Shown in pieces: positions 36,242 through 46,065 of a stretch of 64,000 bases of DNA. The notes under the pieces are model-generated. The model did not search any database. It was not told the DNA's origin and worked only from the letters and a program-made list of their open reading frames with translations. The stretch's first letter is position 1; each line of letters starts with the position of its first letter. Source of the stretch: Escherichia coli (GTDB lineage Bacteria; Pseudomonadota; Gammaproteobacteria; Enterobacterales; Enterobacteriaceae); assembly GCF_013122565.1 (NCBI RefSeq), contig NZ_CP053258.1; one strand, written 5' to 3'. A program made the position numbers and the translations under genes.

Positions 36242-36576
36242 TATTCGTCGTCGCCAATCTCATCATCAATGTTGACGTCCATGCCAGCGACAAGTTTCTT
36301 TCCTTGTTGAATGTCGAATGGACGAGTTTTTTGCGGGTTGTTCTGGATATCTGCATCCAGAAAACGCAAAAATGCATTCATAGTATGATCCTCCTGTTCA
36401 TCTCCCAGTCGGCACATAAATACTTGCCCACCAGGCAGAATTTCGTAATGAATGTTGTCCAAGCCTGGCTTCAGTTTTAAGGCCTCACGCACTGGCGCGG
36501 GGATAGTTGTTTGTCCGCGTATCGTGACCTTTGATTCAGTGGTCAGTACAGCGTGAGAGCGAGCATTAGCGGGCAT
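36241..36576 (-). CDS. prlF: Antitoxin PrlF (SohA), 111 aa
   Basis: MPANARSHAVLTTESKVTIRGQTTIPAPVREALKLKPG…; stop overlaps the yhaV ATG by 1 nt (TAATG); within track ORF 36241..36717. Confidence 0.9.
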   Translation of the reverse strand: MPANARSHAVLTTESKVTIRGQTTIPAPVREALKLKPGLDNIHYEILPGGQVFMCRLGDEQEDHTMNAFLRFLDADIQNNPQKTRPFDIQQGKKLVAGMDVNIDDEIGDDE

Positions 36577-36650: not shown

Positions 36651-37064
36651 GCAGCAGAAAGCGCCAGAACCAACGAAAAAAGAGAACATGTTTCCCATTT
36701 TGCGAGGCGCTTTCCAAATCGTCCGCTCAGTCCCCTCGCACGCCAGCGCTAAAACCACTATTTTGCAAATCTGTGACCTCCTTCACTCTCCATAAAGGCG
36801 GTGATCTAATGGTGTGGATCCACTTTCTGCTTTCGCTTGTCTGCCGTAAGCACTCGCTATTTCGTCATCTCTCCTTTTCACTTTTTCAGTTTGTCATTTT
36901 CATTTGCGGTCAACCGAAAGATCTGGAGTCGATTTTTCCAGGTTTCAACGCCGTTGTCGGGTTCACAAATTCACTTCTTTTCTTCTGATGTAATGCATTC
37001 AAAAGAAAATGAAAGTTTCAAAATGCAAGAATGCAACGAAATACTTTTTCAGGGAGCGATTAAC

Positions 37065-37835
37065 ATGCTAGATAGCCTAAGACGCCGCGAACAAATCATT
37101 GATTTGTTATGTGCCCAGGGAAGCGTACGCGTTGAGCCGCTCAGCATCCATTTTGGTGTCTCATCGGTCACGATCCGCAATGACTTACGGTATCTGGAGC
37201 AAAAAGGTTGCGTCATGCGTTCCTATGGCGGTGCCGTGTTGAATCAACACTTTGCGCTCGACAGACCCTTGCAGGATAAAGATCGCCTTAATCGAGATGT
37301 TAAAGTGCGAATTGCCGAAAAAGCAGCCAGTTTTGTCAAGGATGGCGATACATTAATTATCGATTCTGGTTCAACGACCACGCTAATTCCAGCTTCGCTA
37401 AAGGGGCGTCGGGATTTAGTCGTTATGACGAATGCCTTGAATATCGCCTGGGAAATGGCCAGTTTTGAACGGGTGGATGTTATGATCCTTGGTGGAAACG
37501 TTCGCCAGAGCGTCTTCTCCCTGTATGGGCCTTCGGCAGAACATCAACTCCGGCAGTATCGCTTTGATAAGCTGTTTCTGGGCGTGGACGGCTTTTGCCT
37601 TGAAGCAGGGATTACCACACCACATCCGGGTGAGGCACATCTGAACCAGGTAATGTGTCAGGTTGCTCAGGAAATCACAGTTGTCGCGGACTCCAGTAAA
37701 TTTGGCCGGAAAAGCTTCTGTATGATCGGCGAAGTGAGCGAGATAGATCGACTGATTACCGATAGTGGTATTCCGGATAATTACAAACACGCATTAACGC
37801 AAATGGGTGTGGAAGTTGTGATTGCAGATGAGTGA
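37065..37835 (+). CDS. DeoR-family regulator, AgaR paralog (256 aa)
   Basis: ATG at 37065 preceded by cagggag; HTH …VSSVTIRNDLRYLEQKG… nearly identical to the AgaR recognition helix; DeoR C-terminal domain. The track ORF 36837..37835 is an upstream extension. Confidence 0.8.
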   Translation: MLDSLRRREQIIDLLCAQGSVRVEPLSIHFGVSSVTIRNDLRYLEQKGCVMRSYGGAVLNQHFALDRPLQDKDRLNRDVKVRIAEKAASFVKDGDTLIIDSGSTTTLIPASLKGRRDLVVMTNALNIAWEMASFERVDVMILGGNVRQSVFSLYGPSAEHQLRQYRFDKLFLGVDGFCLEAGITTPHPGEAHLNQVMCQVAQEITVVADSSKFGRKSFCMIGEVSEIDRLITDSGIPDNYKHALTQMGVEVVIADE

Positions 37836-37879: not shown

Positions 37880-38791
37880 TTACGTTGTATGTTTGATTTG
37901 CAGTAAAGCCGCGCCTCGTACGCCGCTTGTCGCCCCATGAACGGCAGAAAATACGCGCGCAGGTTCCAGACCCGGAAGAAGGTAGCGCGTCATGGCTTTC
38001 GGCAATAAGGCATAAATCTCTTTAAAATTAGACAACCCACCGCCAAGAACAAATGCATCAACGTCGAGAATATGCTGCAATTGCGCCAGTGTACAACCAA
38101 CCATGTCTATCCAGGCGTTTATAGTGGTGATAGCACTGGAAATGCCATGTTGATGATTTTCTAATAATGTCTCCATAGTGATTTGCTCACCGCTGAAATG
38201 CTTATGTAACCAGAGCAAACCAGGGCCAGACTGGTAGCGTTCCACACACCCTTGCAAACCGCAGCCGCATTGTAATTCAGGAAGGTTATAGCGCCGCATA
38301 AATGTCGCCGGGAGCGGTAAATGACCAAACTCGCAGGCCATACGGTTACGGCCACGGTATAACTGGCCATCAATAACTAATCCCCCGCCCATACCCGTGC
38401 CGATAATCGCGCCAAAGATCCGGCTATATTGACGAGCTTGATCGGTATGCGCTTCTGATAGGGCGAAGCAACAGCAGTCATTATCCATTATTACCGGGCG
38501 GTTAAGGCGATTTGCCAGATCGGTTAATACCTGGCGTCCGGTCAGGCAGGGAACGTTAGAAGACAACAGTTTACCGGTGTGCCGATCCATAACGCCGGGC
38601 ATCCCGATACCTATTTTGCCTTGCGTACCCGTGGCCCAGTCAGCGGTATCAATCAGAGACACAAATGTGGATAGAAAAAGCGCGTAATCCTGAACAGGCG
38701 TAGCCACCCGCTTGCGCCAGCAAATTTGTAAATCCTGATCAAAGGCGACTATCTCTGTTTTGGTTCCGCCAATATCAACACCGTAAAACAT
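37880..38791 (-). CDS. ROK-family sugar kinase, NagK-like (303 aa)
   Basis: MFYGVDIGGTKTEIVAFD… N-terminal ATP-binding motif; Zn-binding CxCGxxGC motif (CGCGLQGC); same length as NagK. Confidence 0.8.
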   Translation of the reverse strand: MFYGVDIGGTKTEIVAFDQDLQICWRKRVATPVQDYALFLSTFVSLIDTADWATGTQGKIGIGMPGVMDRHTGKLLSSNVPCLTGRQVLTDLANRLNRPVIMDNDCCCFALSEAHTDQARQYSRIFGAIIGTGMGGGLVIDGQLYRGRNRMACEFGHLPLPATFMRRYNLPELQCGCGLQGCVERYQSGPGLLWLHKHFSGEQITMETLLENHQHGISSAITTINAWIDMVGCTLAQLQHILDVDAFVLGGGLSNFKEIYALLPKAMTRYLLPGLEPARVFSAVHGATSGVRGAALLQIKHTT

Positions 38792-38809: not shown

Positions 38810-40066
38810 TCACAGCACAACCAGGGTATTTTCCTTGCGAGCGCGTTCGGCGGCAAAGACCATCAGGTGACTTTCAAGTGATTCATTGGGGCCTGAGAGG
38901 ATCAGGTTTTGATCGCCCGCTAATACCGCCTGAATAAAGCGATCCATCAGATAGTAATCCCCACCACCGTGACCCCCCATTTGGGTGCGATTACCCGCTT
39001 CGATCTCCTCAATGGTGTATATAGTTTGCTGGTCGGTGAGAAAATCAAAACACCGAATGGTGTTGCCATCCCCTTCCAGATAGCCTTTCGAACCAAAAAG
39101 GCGGGTTTTGCGATCTTCCATTTTCGTAAAGGCCGTCATTGTAAAAGTGACGCTCTGCTGATGCGCAAATTGCATGTTGACCACTTGATGATCGACAACA
39201 TTGTTATCGCAGCAATAAACGCAGCGACCATAGGGACCGTCACGTAGCGACTGACGAACGTTTTCTTCTGTGGGGTTTGCCGTTAACACGCGACGGAAGT
39301 GAGGCGTACATTTATGGGCATCACCAAGATAAATTTTGCATGCGGACCACGGGCAGGTAGCTTCGACCTGGCAATCAAGGCAGCGATCGGCTGCACCTTC
39401 GGGCTGGTTTTGCTTAATAAAATGGTTAAGGCCGCCAAATGAGGTAACACTTTTACAATTATCCCCCATGATGTAGCGGATCCAGTCCAGATCGTGGCAA
39501 GATTTTTGCAAAAGCATAAATGACGATTCAGCTTCGTTGCGCCAGTTACCACGTACAAAAGAGTGTGCCTGGTGCCAGTAACCGACGGGTTCGAGATGCT
39601 GCATACTGATAATGTCGCCAATGATGCCGCTGTCGAGTAAGGATTTGAGTTTTTGTGTATATCGGGTGTAACGAAGAACATGAGCCACCGCTAATAACAC
39701 ATGATTGCGTTTCACGGCATCAATAATGATACGGCAATCTGCAGCTGTCGGTGCTAACGGTTTTTCCAGCAGGATATGATATCCCAAATCAGCAAATGCA
39801 ACGGCAGGCTCTTTATGCATATTGTCTTGCGTACAAATGAGGACTACATCAGCCATTTTGGGGGCTTTTGCAGCTTCTTTCCAGTCACTAAAAATATTGT
39901 CTGAAGAGATATTATGCTGGGCTACAAATTGCTCTCGATAAACCTCTCTGGGTTCAGCAACACCTACAACTTGCATTCTGTCTGGATGTTCAAGAGCATA
40001 ACGGGAATATATTTCCCCTCGTGCACCTGCACCTATCACTAAAACAGAAACTTTGTTTTTATTCAT
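38810..40066 (-). CDS. Gfo/Idh/MocA-family NAD(P)-dependent oxidoreductase with an unusual Cys-rich segment (about 418 aa)
   Basis: N-terminal Rossmann motif VLVIGAGARG; C-terminal alpha/beta domain; Cys cluster CLDCQVEATCPWSACKIY…CTPHF…CVYCCDNN. Start taken at MNKNKVSVLVIGAG within track ORF 38810..40093. Confidence 0.7.
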   Translation of the reverse strand: MNKNKVSVLVIGAGARGEIYSRYALEHPDRMQVVGVAEPREVYREQFVAQHNISSDNIFSDWKEAAKAPKMADVVLICTQDNMHKEPAVAFADLGYHILLEKPLAPTAADCRIIIDAVKRNHVLLAVAHVLRYTRYTQKLKSLLDSGIIGDIISMQHLEPVGYWHQAHSFVRGNWRNEAESSFMLLQKSCHDLDWIRYIMGDNCKSVTSFGGLNHFIKQNQPEGAADRCLDCQVEATCPWSACKIYLGDAHKCTPHFRRVLTANPTEENVRQSLRDGPYGRCVYCCDNNVVDHQVVNMQFAHQQSVTFTMTAFTKMEDRKTRLFGSKGYLEGDGNTIRCFDFLTDQQTIYTIEEIEAGNRTQMGGHGGGDYYLMDRFIQAVLAGDQNLILSGPNESLESHLMVFAAERARKENTLVVL

Positions 40067-40104
40067 GGTGAAAAGACCTTCTGATAAATTCATCTGCTTG
40101 TTTT

Positions 40105-40863
40105 TTATAAATTACGAAAACTAACAAGATGAAATCCGCGTTTTTCAATCTCATATTTGAGTGACGACGTAGTCAGAACTGCTAGTTCTTCCAGTCGTTG
40201 GTAGCAGTAACTGCTCAACATTAAGGGGGTATCGATAAACCCTGGGTGACACATAATTTCCAGAGACTTATCATTAGTTTTTATGGCTCTATCAATAAGT
40301 GACAAGAAAAAGTCTTCTGAAATATTCTCATCGTAGAAATCACTGCTGAACCCATCACTACTTTTTACATTCCGCGAATCGATGTTTTTCTCTCGTAAAA
40401 CGGAACGGTCGATACGTAACGGTAAATTTTTCTCACGCGCGAAACGAGCGACGATGGGATAAACCTGCGGGATCATATGAACGCTGTGATGGCTGTCTAA
40501 ATGGGTGGGCTCCCGTTTAAATACATCAATAAAACGTTGATATTGAGAACTCAGTTCCTGTTCAATTTCGCCTAGGTTTAATTGCCCTTGCTCCGCAACC
40601 TCCCAAATCCATTTACCTAATCTACCTTCACGTGTCAGTGAAGGCATATCCGTTAAGGCAGCGCCATAGCTCAAAACAAAATGTAAACCGACGCCGAGTT
40701 GTGGGGTTTCGGCACTCAACGAGGCGGCATGATCAATTGCCGGAGCGTTCATCATCGCTGTTGTTGAGCGAACCACGCCATTCCGTACCGCCTCGATGAT
40801 TCCATAATTAATACCTTTGCTTAGTCCAAAATCGTCCGCATTCACAATTAATAAGCGTTGCAT
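40105..40863 (-). CDS. YdjC/ChbG-family carbohydrate deacetylase (252 aa)
   Basis: [25 protein letters not shown]…; conserved HxDSHH-type motif ([10 protein letters not shown]). Confidence 0.8.
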
Positions 40864-40875
40864 AAGGTATCCTTG

Positions 40876-42228
40876 TTACTGATGAGATTGGGTAAGTTCA
40901 GCAATAGTGCTGGAAAATTGAGGTAGATGTTTTTTATGGGCAATGATCAGTTCACGCACTAATTTTTCAGCGTCGTTATCCGAGGTCATTAGCGGGTTAA
41001 GACACAGAGCCAGCAGCGTATCGTTAAAGTTACCACTTATTGCCGCCCGGGCTGCCGCAATCTCAAAACATTTGATTGAATGAATGAGCCCCAGTACATT
41101 TTCGTCAAAATGAGTGAGACGCGGGTGGGGGGTAACACCGTTATTCCCCAGAATGCAGGTCATTTCAACGGTCCAGTCTTCAGGGATATTTTTTACACTG
41201 CCCTTGTGTGGAATATTAACGTAGTGTTCTGTTTGCGTGTCATTATAAATTGCATTAATAACGGCACAGGCTGCATCTGAATAATACGCACCACCACGCA
41301 GATCCAGTTCTTCAGGTTTTGTATTTAGTTCTGGGTCCTTATACAGCTCAAATAATTTCTTCTCTAATGCCTGCACGACTTGTGCACGAACGCCATTTTT
41401 ATAAAATTCCCCCATCTCAATGGCGAGCATTTCTTTATGTTTAAAATAGTAACGTAAGTAAGCACAGGGCAGGAGATTAAGTGCCCGAATTAAATTAGGA
41501 TTGAAGGTTAAACTGTCAATATTTTTGACGGTACTTCCTTCAAGCAGACCTTCAACGACGCCATCGAGCAATTCAGCAAAACGTGATTGTCCATTGACCC
41601 ATACGTCTTTAAGAAAGACCATATGATTTAAGCCAAATATGTCTATTGAAAGATCATCGTCCGCGCCAAGTTTTAGGGCATTGCGAACGAAGCTCTTCAT
41701 CCCAACAGGGACATTACAGACACCGATAAACCGTTTAAATTGGGTATGGCGGTACACGGCTTCAGTGACCATCCCGGCAGGATTGGTGAAATTAATAATC
41801 CAGGCATCGGGGCAAAGTTCTTCTACATCTTTGATAATATGAAAGATCACGGGGATGGTACGCAATCCGTTGAATAAACCGCCTGCGCCATTGGTTTCTT
41901 GCCCCAGATATCCCTGACTTAGTGGCATCAACTCATCCATTTCCCGCGCTTTTAATTGCCCGACCCGAAACTGTGTGGTGACAAAGTGCGCGCCCTGTAA
42001 TGCTGTGCGGCGGTCCAGGGTTTTCACTATTTTTAACGGAATGCCTGCTTTGACTACCATTCGCTGACAAAGGTCGAAAATAATGTCCAGCTTTTCTTTG
42101 CCTTCTTCAATATCAACTAGCCATAATTCACTGACCGGTAATTCATCGTAGCGTTTTATGAATCCTTCAAGGAGTTCTGGCGTATAGCTACTGCCACCGC
42201 CAATAGTAACGATTTTTAAATTTTTCAT
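40876..42228 (-). CDS. Glycoside hydrolase family 4 6-phospho-glycosidase, ChbF-like (450 aa)
   Basis: MKNLKIVTIGGGSSYTPEL… NAD-binding N-terminus; GH4 length and motifs. Confidence 0.85.
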   Translation of the reverse strand: MKNLKIVTIGGGSSYTPELLEGFIKRYDELPVSELWLVDIEEGKEKLDIIFDLCQRMVVKAGIPLKIVKTLDRRTALQGAHFVTTQFRVGQLKAREMDELMPLSQGYLGQETNGAGGLFNGLRTIPVIFHIIKDVEELCPDAWIINFTNPAGMVTEAVYRHTQFKRFIGVCNVPVGMKSFVRNALKLGADDDLSIDIFGLNHMVFLKDVWVNGQSRFAELLDGVVEGLLEGSTVKNIDSLTFNPNLIRALNLLPCAYLRYYFKHKEMLAIEMGEFYKNGVRAQVVQALEKKLFELYKDPELNTKPEELDLRGGAYYSDAACAVINAIYNDTQTEHYVNIPHKGSVKNIPEDWTVEMTCILGNNGVTPHPRLTHFDENVLGLIHSIKCFEIAAARAAISGNFNDTLLALCLNPLMTSDNDAEKLVRELIIAHKKHLPQFSSTIAELTQSHQ

Positions 42229-42305
42229 GTTACTTCCATACTCAATATTAAATTGACTTGTGATTCCATGTTTTTATCTAAACCTTGGCATGAAGACGCG
42301 TCCTA

Positions 42306-43667
42306 TTAAAACTTCAACGCATTTGCTATATCTTCTTCGCTTTCTTCTTTATTAATTTCGACTTGTGCTTTGTTTGAGATAATGACAAAGGGAAGATAAA
42401 CCATTGTGGCAACACCTAAGTTAAAGAGTGCCAGGAGTAATCCAGCAATGCTCCCATTTGAACTGAAGAATGCATTAAGTCCAGGGGGCATGGTCCAGGG
42501 GGCGATATTTGTTGATGGCGGAATAATACCCATGTTATAGGCGATTAAGGTAATCCCGGCGAGAATGGGTTGAATCATCACAAACGGAATTAACATAATG
42601 GGATTCATAATGATCGGCAAACCAAATAAAATAGGTTCGTTGATATTAAAGATACCAGAAGGTAACGCTAATTTAGCAACCTGACGATAATCCTCCCGGC
42701 GTGAGGCAATGAAAATAGCGAAAATGAGTCCCAGCGTTGCTCCTGTTCCACCGAGGAATACGTAAGCGTCAAGCATTGGCCCGGTCCAGAAATGGAAGGT
42801 TTTTCCTGCTTCCAGTGCCGCTTGTACCGAACCATATTGTGTATAAGTCGCAATATTTTCCAGACCCCAGGGACCCAGCGTGCTGCTTTGTAACGCAGTT
42901 AATACTAAACCGCCGTGGATACCAAAGAACCATAACAGGGAATTAAAGACAACGAATGTCCAGCCAACAATACTGCTCATTGACGTTAATGGCGTAGCCA
43001 GTGAGGTGATAATGACCTGATGGAAATTGGTGCCATATATCGACAATATGCCAGATAAACTCCCCATAATTAACAGGATAATAAACCCAGGCACCATTGC
43101 CGAGAATGAGCGTGATACTGCTGCCGGGACACTCGCGGGTAAACGAATCACCCAGTTGCGACGGATAATAAAAGCGAAAATTTCCGCTACAACTAATCCA
43201 ATGATCATACCAGACAGGATATTGGCTCCCCCCAGCCAGTTTGCGCCAATGACATTAGCAGTTTCTCCTGCTTTGAAGGGGGTGACGGTCATAAACGCTG
43301 CGACAGAGAGTAAGCCAACGGATAACGAATCAACTTTCCGTTCTTCGGCCAACCCCATCCCAATAAAAAAGGGGGTCATGAGTGACATAATGCCCAGCGT
43401 GCCATGATAAGCACTGTCACCGACGACGGTGAAGGCGCTTAAGGTTTTTATGGTCGATGGTTCCAGTCGGACGCCTAATGAATAAAAAAAGGAGCCTTCG
43501 CCAAAATCTAAAAAAACGCTATTAATGAGAACAAATAACGTACCGGCTAACGTTAATGGCATCATACGGATAAAACCGTTTTTTATTGCATTGACGTGAG
43601 GTTGTTTCCCTAATTTAACTGCAAAAGGAAGAATGAGTTTTTCAAGTAACGCCATCACTCCGGGCAT
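42306..43667 (-). CDS. PTS lactose/cellobiose-family EIIC permease, ChbC-like (about 450 aa)
   Basis: Polytopic membrane protein; conserved IIC core (…[22 protein letters not shown]…[11 protein letters not shown]); the exact start may be a few codons downstream. Confidence 0.85.
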
Positions 43668-43741
43668 AAAAATATCCTTATATACCGATTAATGTATCAC
43701 TTTGATTATTGTTGTAGATCAATCCTATTGATAGGGTAGGG

Positions 43742-44059
43742 TTACTTCTGTTGTTTTTTTATCATGGCAATGGCAGATTTTAATACGCCTAAACCATCAA
43801 TTTTCCCATATAACATTGAATCTATAACTTCCACTGGCTTTCCAGGTAATAAGCTTTGGATCTCTGATTGCATATAAGCAATTTGCGGTCCTAATAATAT
43901 AACATCAGCTTCCGGACCTTTCTCTGCAGCAACAGATTCGGAGAATGCTTCAATAATTACCGGCACATCATATTTTATTGCCTGCACTTTCATCTTAGAA
44001 ACTAGCAGAGATGTTGACATTCCCGCCGAGCAAAATAAATATATTCTTTTCTTTTCCAT
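43742..44059 (-). CDS. PTS lactose/cellobiose-family EIIB, ChbB-like (105 aa)
   Basis: [23 protein letters not shown]… with the phospho-acceptor Cys in the CSAGMSTS motif; start chosen within track ORF 43742..44122. Confidence 0.85.
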
Positions 44060-44493
44060 AGGGACTCCGGATATATTAAGGTATAATATATTTGTCATGC
44101 CATAAATGGCATATAATGCCACTTATAATTAATAAAACACCGATTTTTATATTGATTTCCTGAATGTCGTCTTTAGGTATTAATCTCAGGAGTTTCAGGA
44201 ACCATTGAATAATCTGGTTTATAGAATTGAATGTCAAGTTAGTGAAATGGTGGGAGTGCGGTAATAAAAATAGTGCGGCTTTCGGTTGGTTTCTTTTTTA
44301 TCAGAACGAAAAGTACAGTTAAAATGATTTCTGGATAAATTGAAGTTTTTTCAATGAATTACATTTTTGTCTGCCCGTGGGAATGAAAAAAACAATAATC
44401 AAAAAATACTTTAGATATGTGAGCGTTATCACTTCCTTTTTGTTGGGAAAACGGGGAAACACAGTCTCCCCATTTTCCGTTCATGCGAGGTCG

Positions 44494-46065
44494 TCAGGTC
44501 ACCGGTGCCGGGTTAAACACAGCCAGCTGGTTATGCAGTCCCCATTGATCCGAGAAGGTTTTCTTCTTCCCGCTGGCGACGTCGAGAATAAAGTGGAACA
44601 GCTTCCAGCCCACTTGTTCAATGGTCTCTTCGCCGGTAGCGATAGTACCCGCATTAATATCCATTAAATCAAACCAGCGGTTCGCCAGCTCGGTGCGGGT
44701 CGCCATTTTAATGACGGGTACCGCCATCAGGCCGTACGGCGTACCACGGCCGGTCGTAAACACTTGCACTGTGATACCCGAAGCCACCTGTTGCGTGCCA
44801 CAGACAAAATCGCTGGCTGGCGTCGCGGCGTAAATTAATCCGCGTTTAGTCGGACGTTGACCGGGCGACAGCACTTCAACAATTGCGCTTTTACCCGATT
44901 TAGCAATGGAGCCGAGCGCTTTCTCCACCACATTTGCCAGACCGCCTTTCTTGTTGCCCGGCGAAGGGTTGGCGCTGCGGTCGGTTTTTCCCATATTGAG
45001 ATAGTTATCGTACCACTCCATCTCCTCAAGCAGCCGTTTGCCGACCTCTTCGTTCACTGCGCGTGGTGTCAGCAGATGGATCGCGTCACGCACTTCCGTG
45101 ACTTCTGAGAACATCACCGTTGCGCCGCAGCGCACCAGTAGATCAGACGCATACCCAACCGCCGGGTTTGCCGTTACGCCAGAAAAGGCATCGCTGCCAC
45201 CGCACTGCATGCCGACAACCAGTTCTGAAGCCGGACAGGTTTCTCGCTGACGTTGATTCAGTTTTTGTAGATGGCGTTCGGCGACCTGCAAAATATCCTC
45301 GACCATGGACTGAAAACCGACATGCTTTTCATCCTGCAAACTGACAATGCTGGCGCTTTCTACTGGAATAGCTTGCACATCATCCGTTCCAGTCAGCAGG
45401 CGCTCAGGCTGCAACTTTTCACAACCCAGGCCAATCACCATTACTTCGCCGCCAAAGTTAGGGTTCAGCGAAATATTGTGAATGGTACGAATAGGCACAA
45501 CTGCCGCCGGTGCGTTAATCGCCACGCCACAACCGTACAAATGATTCAGCCCCACCACGCCATCGACGTTCGGGTATTTCGGTAGCAGATCGCGTTCAAT
45601 GATTTTTACTACATAGTCCACCACGCCTGCCACACAGTGGACGCTGGTGGTGATGCCGAGCAGGTTTTTGGTGCCCACGCTGCCATCGGCATTGCGATAG
45701 CCCTCAAAGGTGTATCCTTCCAGTGGCGGTAAGGGTTCCGGGACTTTGGTTGCCAGTGGCAGCGTGTGTAACGGCGGCGCTTCCGGTAGTACAACCATTG
45801 ATTCGTCGATCCAGCTTCCGCGTGGGATTGCACGCACGGCGTAACCAATCACTTCGCCATAACGAATAATTTCACCATTAGCCGGAATGTTGAGCAATGC
45901 GACTTTATGCCCCTGGGGAATATGTTCAATTAATTCCAGCCCATCCGGAAAACGCGTTCCTGCTTTCAGGCCATTATCATTAACAATAATTGCCACATTA
46001 TCTGTGTCGTGAACTTTTATATAAAACGCAGTTGGCGTTTCTTGTCTGATTTCGATGTTGGCCAT
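44494..46065 (-). CDS. garD: Galactarate dehydratase (523 aa)
   Basis: Track ORF; translation [39 protein letters not shown]…. Confidence 0.93.

Follow-up and report, generated by a model that had tools for sequence, protein, structure and literature searches.

In Escherichia coli, N,N'-diacetylchitobiose is taken up by a phosphotransferase system (PTS) of the Lac/Chb family encoded by the chbBCARFG operon, which lies between osmE and katE and includes an EIIA gene (chbA) and the gene for an AraC-type regulator (chbR). This operon is repressed by NagC, silenced by the small RNA ChiX and induced by ChbR together with chitobiose, and its expression also needs CAP. EIIAs that are shared between systems are well known. 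In Enterococcus faecalis, for example, several Lac-family EIIB/EIIC sets depend on one EIIA, CelA1 (PMC11976118). Here we describe a seven-gene island in a 64-kb stretch of E. coli DNA (contig NZ_CP053258.1; hereafter the window) that encodes a ChbB-like EIIB and a ChbC-like EIIC without an EIIA, and we propose that this pair is probably not a relic but performs the import step of a hybrid catabolic operon, with its phosphate most probably supplied by the ChbA of the resident chbBCARFG operon.

The island consists of seven intact genes between prlF and garD. Six are predicted to be transcribed from the minus strand in the order EIIB, EIIC, GH4 glycosidase, ChbG-like deacetylase, Gfo/Idh/MocA oxidoreductase and ROK kinase, with a DeoR-family repressor gene diverging from them, and the EIIB and EIIC genes together coincide exactly with positions 42306-44059. 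The four genes in common with chbBCARFG keep the order B-C-F-G, and their products are 80% (B), 74% (C), 74% (F) and 59% (G) identical to the E. coli Chb proteins, with the EIIB, the EIIC and the deacetylase each reaching the cut-off of a chb-type NCBIfam equivalog model. In contrast with the canonical operon, the island has neither chbA nor chbR, and a spacer of 77 bp between EIIC and GH4 (42229-42305, minus strand), too short for a gene, stands in their position. It also differs in carrying the Gfo/Idh/MocA and ROK genes downstream and in its apparent control, which would be exerted by a DeoR-family repressor on a promoter from an ABC-transporter operon rather than by an AraC-type ChbR. The two systems occupy different chromosomal locations and coexist in strain R32_14_1F.

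Both PTS proteins are assigned by family models and by comparison with solved structures. The EIIB (43742-44059, minus strand, 105 amino acids), whose ATG at 44059 is preceded by a GGAG ribosome-binding site, matched Pfam PF02302 (PTS_IIB) at 1.3e-13 (51.8 bits, cut-off 23.6) and NCBIfam equivalog NF007796 at 189.7 bits (cut-off 157), and its 80% identity holds both for K-12 ChbB and for the solved ChbB structures 1H9C and 2WY2_D. Residues 1-23 equal those of ChbB apart from H5R, and the active-site loop FCSAGMST (residues 9-16), which contains Cys10, is the same in the two proteins; among five island alleles, Cys10 was invariant and the loop conserved. The EIIC (42306-43667, minus strand, 453 amino acids) matched Pfam PF02378 (PTS_EIIC) at 1.4e-46 and the NCBIfam ChbC equivalog NF007634 at 806.7 bits (cut-off 760), in an alignment covering residues 1-453 of the protein and positions 1-452 of the model. 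Its GIHG and NINE motifs are kept and align with those of the Bacillus cereus ChbC structure 3QNQ, in which Cao and colleagues reportedly identified, in 2011, the GIHG histidine and the NINE glutamate as residues of the sugar-binding and phosphotransfer site. Eight full-length EIIC alleles of the island were 98-100% identical in protein sequence.

The original prediction, that the stretch between prlF and garD encodes a ChbB-like EIIB and a ChbC-like EIIC but no EIIA, agrees with these family-model scores and also with our tblastn and six-frame Pfam searches. When K-12 ChbA (translated from locus L002) was compared with the whole window by tblastn, the best match had an E-value of 0.027 and was located outside the island. 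Only two gaps, 36718-37064 and 44060-44493, are able to hold an EIIA of 116 amino acids, and a six-frame Pfam scan of both gaps and of the 77-bp spacer returned no family at E<=10, while ChbA, as a positive control, was recognized as PF02255 at 3e-32. Thus, no EIIA remnant was found in the island's intergenic regions by either method. ChbR gave no tblastn match to the window better than E=0.7. A comparison of the leader upstream of EIIB and the EIIC-GH4 spacer with the non-coding regions of the K-12 chb operon, seeking the scar of a chbA-chbR deletion, produced only shuffle-level scores, and neither the chbC-chbA nor the chbR-chbF spacer of K-12 could be matched to the 77-bp spacer. When one genome was scanned for each species, an EIIA was present within 7 kb at 41 of the 48 evaluable Lac-family EIIC loci, and the pattern of the window, EIIB and EIIC without EIIA, was seen at none of the 48. 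The lack of an EIIA is therefore a minority state among Lac-family EIIC loci.

The absence of chbA and chbR from the position that they occupy in the canonical operon would also fit a partially decayed chb duplicate, as the original prediction had suggested, that is non-functional and has lost both genes, and so would the rarity of the island, which we found in 3/5426 complete E. coli genomes (92.4% DNA identity). However, this explanation is contradicted by the state of the other copies. Two cryptic-clade genomes, Escherichia sp. E4385 (L014) and E3659 (L015), carry further copies, as do three contigs of draft or metagenomic origin (L006, L016 and L017), and the EIIA-less layout was the same in all seven further contexts examined, which cover E. 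coli and cryptic Escherichia clades. All genes are intact in the window, in the RefSeq carrier L001 and in L006, L014, L015 and L016, where none of the seven genes contains an internal stop, and the partial contig L017 has the same gene order. Compared with the other copies, the EIIC gene of the window has 3-7 nonsynonymous and 55-70 synonymous differences, giving a ratio of nonsynonymous to synonymous substitution rates (dN/dS) of 0.015-0.027, and the EIIB gene has 3-9 nonsynonymous and 29-31 synonymous differences (dN/dS 0.019-0.052). The remaining five genes have dN/dS values of 0.05-0.16, with GH4 at 0.05-0.06. The EIIB/EIIC pair is thus under purifying selection, and the 0.2-0.7 synonymous substitutions per site that have accumulated between copies are accompanied by zero disruptions of the seven genes in the full-length copies (dN/dS 0.015-0.16 overall).

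Divergence from chb argues in the same direction. A search of 5.8 billion proteins placed the closest EIICs outside the island's own cluster at 77% identity (Superficieibacter), the ChbC proteins of E. coli, Salmonella, Klebsiella, Proteus and other Enterobacterales were 68-77% identical to the island EIIC, and the island DNA was ~68% identical to every chb operon found. A plasmid search, made to find a mobile origin for the cassette, returned only ordinary chb operons, again at ~68% identity. A recent duplication of the E. coli chb operon was therefore ruled out by the 59-80% protein and ~68% DNA identity. Between the window and the cryptic-clade copies, synonymous divergence was 0.21-0.27 for EIIC, GH4, ROK and DeoR and 0.17-0.31 for the flanking garD and garL genes; since the island has diverged about as much as its flanks, it appears to be old and to have been kept in its EIIA-less form since these lineages split. 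Taken together, the intact reading frames, the purifying selection and the old divergence from chb make a decaying duplicate extremely improbable.

Divergence between copies is not uniform along the island. The segments of the window that contain the Gfo/Idh/MocA, ChbG-like and EIIB/promoter regions (38810-40863 and 43742-44312) are 86-90% identical in nucleotide sequence to the other copies, with synonymous divergence (dS) of 0.35-0.70, while the EIIC, GH4, ROK and DeoR segments are 94-97% identical to L001, L006, L014, L015 and L016, with dS of 0.1-0.27. On these values, the island allele of the window is apparently a mosaic produced by recombination, with a more distant donor that has not been sampled. 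In RefSeq carrier genomes such as L001, automatic annotation has placed the names chbC, chbG and agaR on island genes, so that each of these genes seems to be doubled, and the names chbC and chbG are misleading in that they read as the canonical genes themselves.

Since selection has maintained an EIIB that needs a phosphate donor, and the island has no EIIA, an EIIA would have to act in trans. The original prediction had proposed an EIIA encoded elsewhere, for example ChbA: the requirement for a trans-acting EIIA stands, and ChbA is the obvious candidate but is unproven as the donor. The chbA gene is present in 5394/5426 complete E. coli genomes, and a chimeric Gfo plus chbA query found both genes in 3/3 complete island carriers. 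Strain R32_14_1F carries an intact canonical chbBCARFG operon at 2,229,722-2,234,962, so the island is present alongside that operon rather than in place of it. To our knowledge, the E. coli core genome encodes no Lac-family EIIA besides ChbA. The island EIIB should be compatible with ChbA, given its 80% identity to ChbB and the identity of residues 9-16. The active-site loop of ChbB fits the cleft of ChbA, and in the nuclear magnetic resonance complex of Jung, Cai and Clore from 2010 (PDB 2WWV, 2WY2) the EIIB loop is said to be buried in the ChbA active-site cleft. We suggest that phosphate would pass from phosphoenolpyruvate through enzyme I (EI) and HPr to a Lac-family EIIA from elsewhere, most probably ChbA, then to Cys10 of the island EIIB, and from there to a beta-linked amino-sugar disaccharide during its passage through the island EIIC. 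If this dependence on ChbA is true, use of the island's sugar would be wired to the chitobiose regulon.

Several observations weigh against ChbA as the donor. Given how chb is regulated, ChbA may be scarce when the island is induced, and nothing visible couples the expression of the two operons. The ChiX-complementary 12-mer CCCGTCAAAGAG, which is present in the K-12 chbB-chbC spacer, is absent from the island mRNA, where an exact-complement test found a 10-nt A/T run as the best complement to ChiX; this test was used because folding the whole ChiX molecule together with the spacers gave no clear answer. The EIIB-EIIC spacer of the island (43668-43741, minus strand) is accordingly without a ChiX-pairing site, and the leader upstream of EIIB, which did not significantly resemble the region upstream of K-12 chbB or the chb control region, does not appear to be ChbR-related. 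In addition, 20% of the EIIB residues differ from ChbB, and the role of ChbA as donor is deduced from sequence, with chbA itself seen in three other complete carriers. The main uncertainty is whether basal levels of ChbA suffice, whether the island's substrate or products induce chb as well, or whether another EIIA serves as the donor.

The last of these options would make the pair functional but charged by a different Lac-family EIIA, encoded by a strain-specific accessory PTS. The source genome was covered over 64 kb only, which leaves room for further EIIA genes, and the scan across species showed that many Enterobacterales have additional, distant PTS loci of the Lac family that encode an EIIA themselves (L043-L060). 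However, the EIICs of these accessory systems are only 28-36% identical to the island EIIC, compared with 80% identity between the island EIIB and ChbB, and no EIIA other than ChbA has been demonstrated in each of the three complete carriers; we therefore regard an accessory donor as fairly unlikely. The stability of the EIIA-less layout across Escherichia lineages could instead reflect an unconventional donor, either HPr acting directly on the island EIIB or an EIIA of another family. We know of no precedent for HPr or a non-Lac EIIA charging Lac-family EIIB domains, and the identity of the EIIB loop to that of ChbB, together with the presence of chbA in every complete carrier examined, makes this explanation highly improbable.

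Charging by ChbA could also have a regulatory consequence. Uptake might be subject to an AND gate, in which the DeoR/AgaR-like control of the island promoter is combined with the supply of ChbA from an operon regulated by NagC, ChbR, CAP and ChiX, or, more boldly, the EIIB might be charged by a donor from outside the Lac family; we consider this proposal quite doubtful. If the AND gate were true, uptake would need two independent sugar signals, coupling the chitobiose regulon to a module related to N-acetylgalactosamine (GalNAc), and a non-Lac-family donor would constitute a new phosphorelay branch.

The origin of the island can be traced by comparison with a second group of relatives, uncharacterized loci of Enterobacterales that import by an ABC transporter. 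Five such loci (L003, L004, L010 and Serratia L005 and L012) have orthologous Gfo/Idh/MocA, ROK and DeoR genes in the same order as the island, and they include the closest relatives of the island Gfo protein outside E. coli (84% identity in L003 and L004, 79% in L010, and 65-67% in L012 and Serratia L005). Whereas the island would import by its EIIB and EIIC, the ABC-type loci do so by a substrate-binding protein (SBP), two permeases and a MalK-like ATPase, and the PTS, GH4 and YdjC/ChbG-like genes that are present in the island are found in none of them. The L003 locus occupies the same chromosomal neighborhood (prlF-yhaV-agaR) and has the same promoter as the island. At the DNA level, the window and L003 are homologous from the aga genes to position 40058 in the Gfo gene, the first gene of the shared module, which is also where the homology with L004 ends. 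Homology to L003 resumes for 120 bp at 44312-44193, where the L003 counterpart is the region upstream of the SBP gene. This block, which forms the promoter/operator region of the transporter operon (44193-44312, minus strand), contains the best sigma-70-like match of the region (10/12), with a -35 TTGACA at 44237-44232, a 17-nt spacer and a -10 GATTAT at 44214-44209. The homology to L003 extends a few bases past the -10, to CTGAAA (44198-44193), and beyond this point the 5' leader (44060-44192, minus strand) had no homology to L003. A cassette of ~4.1 kb comprising the leader, EIIB, EIIC, GH4 and the ChbG-like gene thus takes exactly the position that the four ABC genes have in L003, downstream of the shared promoter.

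The island is, on this comparison, the product of a promoter-sharing cassette swap, a hybrid of a chb-type cassette and an older DeoR-ROK-Gfo module. Since the ABC form occurs across genera and the PTS form in Escherichia only, we infer that the cassette replaced the importer, and not the reverse. A chbB-C-F-G-type cassette would have replaced the four-gene ABC importer by insertion just downstream of the older module's promoter, with chbA and its neighbor in the canonical operon, chbR, likewise absent from the cassette. We propose that chbR was unnecessary because the DeoR repressor controls the promoter. The island would then represent a clean natural case of modular transporter exchange, from an ABC importer to a PTS-plus-hydrolase cassette under the same promoter, in which the swap left the new module dependent on an EIIA of the core operon, most likely ChbA.

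The regulator itself (37065-37835, plus strand, 256 amino acids; Pfam HTH_DeoR and DeoRC) is AgaR-like, scoring 363 bits against the NCBIfam AgaR model (cut-off 260), and is 43% identical to the AgaR encoded in the same window. The 10-mer CAACCGAAAG has only two copies in the 64 kb of the window, one in each promoter region of the island: the first, at 44288-44279, lies in that of the transporter operon, and the second, at 36911-36920, in that of the regulator (36718-37064, plus strand). It is a candidate operator of the island DeoR repressor, and the pairing of regulator and operator is proposed from this distribution. The cassette-specific leader also contains a perfect palindrome, ATGCCATTTATGGCAT (arms ATGCCAT and ATGGCAT around a central TT; 44112-44097), ~40 nt upstream of the EIIB start; it is almost unchanged in L001, and weak promoter-like and terminator-like predictions overlap it. 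Direct control of the island by AgaR was considered and dropped, with preference given to the DeoR paralog that the island itself encodes, since the E. coli AgaR operator consensus matches the aga promoters only. Six matches to this consensus were found, compared with 0.18 expected by chance, and they are confined to 29349-29609 and 34696-34896, within the aga cluster (~24.2-35.7 kb); the second stretch lies just upstream of agaR.

The remaining genes of the island suggest what the imported sugar might be. The GH4 protein (40876-42228, minus strand, 450 amino acids; Pfam Glyco_hydro_4 and Glyco_hydro_4C) is a predicted ChbF-like 6-phospho-beta-glycosidase, and the ChbG-like YdjC-family deacetylase (40105-40863, minus strand, 252 amino acids; Pfam YdjC) scored 351.6 bits against the NCBIfam model for chitin disaccharide deacetylase (cut-off 227). 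The ROK-family sugar kinase (37880-38791, minus strand, 303 amino acids; Pfam ROK) is closest to the N-acetylglucosamine (GlcNAc) kinase NagK, with 310 bits against the NCBIfam NagK model, below its cut-off of 380, and only 64 bits against the disaccharide kinase BglK.

The Gfo/Idh/MocA oxidoreductase (38810-40066, minus strand, 418 amino acids; start ATG at 40066 with an alternative ATG at 40093), assigned by Pfam, has a Cys-rich insert. It belongs to an uncharacterized protein family with 58-67% identity across genera and phyla, including Proteobacteria, Anaerolineae and Lentisphaerae, in which the cysteine cluster C229, C232, C238 and C282 is invariant. In the neighborhoods examined (L003-L005, L008-L010, L012 and the window at 38810-40066), this gene nearly always adjoins a kinase of the N-acetylhexosamine (HexNAc) type, either ROK or APH/NahK-like, and an ABC importer is present at most of the loci; distant Gfo homologs adjoin ABC importers and APH-type (NahK-like) kinases. 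A search of PDB sequences, NCBIfam, an AlphaFold2 (AF2) model and Foldseek assigned the protein no further than the generic Gfo/Idh/MocA fold. The AF2 model (pLDDT, the predicted confidence score, of 86) had as its nearest folds YjhC/NanOx and NAD-dependent glycosidases (SqgA) at 12-18% identity, and its resemblance to ordinary sugar dehydrogenases was about as close as that to YjhC/NanOx and to NAD-dependent glycosidases. We found nothing in the literature specific to the island or to the Gfo-ROK module.

The ABC-type loci L005 and L012 are flanked by GH123 and agaS/kbaY-like genes, with a kbaZ-like gene also present in L012. GH123 is a family of beta-N-acetylgalactosaminidases. The NagK-like ROK kinase, the GH123 and aga-type neighbors and the NahK-like kinases together point to an N-acetylhexosamine-related pathway for the island, a substrate class suggested by gene content. 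In the pathway that we envisage, a chitobiose-like beta-disaccharide would be phosphorylated on entry, then deacetylated, then split by the GH4 enzyme, and the free hexosamine (HexNAc) from this last step would be passed by the Gfo enzyme and the ROK kinase to the adjacent aga pathway or to the nag pathway. The Gfo/Idh/MocA-kinase pair, with ~60% identity across phyla and no assigned function, would be an attractive target for pathway discovery if dependence on ChbA is confirmed.

The presence of a ROK kinase in the operon also allows an explanation in which no EIIA is needed, with the EIIC acting as a facilitator and the kinase phosphorylating the sugar inside the cell, as BglK does with beta-glucosides. 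Consistent with such a route, phosphorylation of the substrate in the ancestral ABC-type loci must be carried out by a kinase. However, the island EIIB would have no role without phosphotransfer, and yet it is under strong purifying selection with Cys10 invariant; the kinase is similar to NagK, which acts on a monosaccharide (310 bits), and not to BglK (64 bits); and it is part of the older module, not of the cassette. Transport without the PTS phosphorelay is thus very unlikely, and we favor a phosphorelay that reaches the island EIIB from a trans-acting EIIA, most probably ChbA.

The surroundings of the island have features of their own. On its right side, garD (44494-46065, minus strand) is annotated as such under the match in complete E. 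coli genomes, and the garD-garL stretch, with a best identity of 99.2% to these genomes, identifies the window as E. coli chromosome. On its left side lies the antitoxin gene prlF (36241-36576, minus strand; Pfam PrlF_antitoxin), which is intact, followed by the toxin gene yhaV (35777-36241, minus strand), which is a pseudogene because of an in-frame TAG at codon 41 (ENY*RK; stop at 36121-36119). Among other carriers, prlF-yhaV is deleted in L001 and L006, yhaV is shortened to 133 amino acids in L016, and in L014 and L015 it is absent or followed by an IS605-family orfB. The toxin-antitoxin pair adjoining the island is, to judge from these alleles, eroding in several lineages. The aga cluster, whose gene names in the window were inferred from the annotated order in L001, looks complete from the lengths of its open reading frames (ORFs), and the 377-amino-acid ORF at 29648-30781 is probably a full-length agaA. 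On the other side of the island, rnpB, which encodes the RNase P RNA, was identified at 50755-51131 (318 bits). It is followed by a low-GC stretch at 51500-54000 (0.31-0.38), with an ORF for an acidic protein of 171 amino acids (51629-52144) at its beginning, that is probably another accessory island.

Incomplete chb-type clusters are not confined to the island. Among close relatives of ChbC, five have neither an EIIA nor an EIIB within 7 kb (L019, L021, L022, L029 and L037). Four of these, from Salmonella enterica subsp. arizonae and diarizonae and two Citrobacter (L019, L021, L022 and L037), form clusters of the type chbC'-chbR'-chbF'-chbG', for which we know of no name, and the fifth, from Huaxiibacter (L029), has chbC'-chbR' only. 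The L021 cluster is flanked by genes for a histidine phosphatase and an aldose 1-epimerase. The EIICs of the four clusters and of L029 are 71-75% identical to that of the island, and, like the island, the clusters encode an incomplete PTS that must rely on components from elsewhere. Incomplete chb-type paralogues that need trans-acting components therefore recur. These clusters differ from the island in that the EIIB is missing as well, the ChbR-type AraC regulator is kept, and Gfo, ROK and DeoR genes are lacking.

The CelA1 case in E. faecalis resembles our proposal for the island in that EIIB/EIIC operons function there without an EIIA of their own (PMC11976118). It differs in that it concerns another phylum and distant proteins, and in that the dependence was established genetically there, while for the island it is deduced. 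The missing EIIA alone would come as no surprise to a PTS specialist. What the island adds to known EIIA sharing is a chb-type PTS cassette that has neither an EIIA nor an AraC-type regulator and that has been placed, in exchange for an ABC importer, on a DeoR-controlled module.

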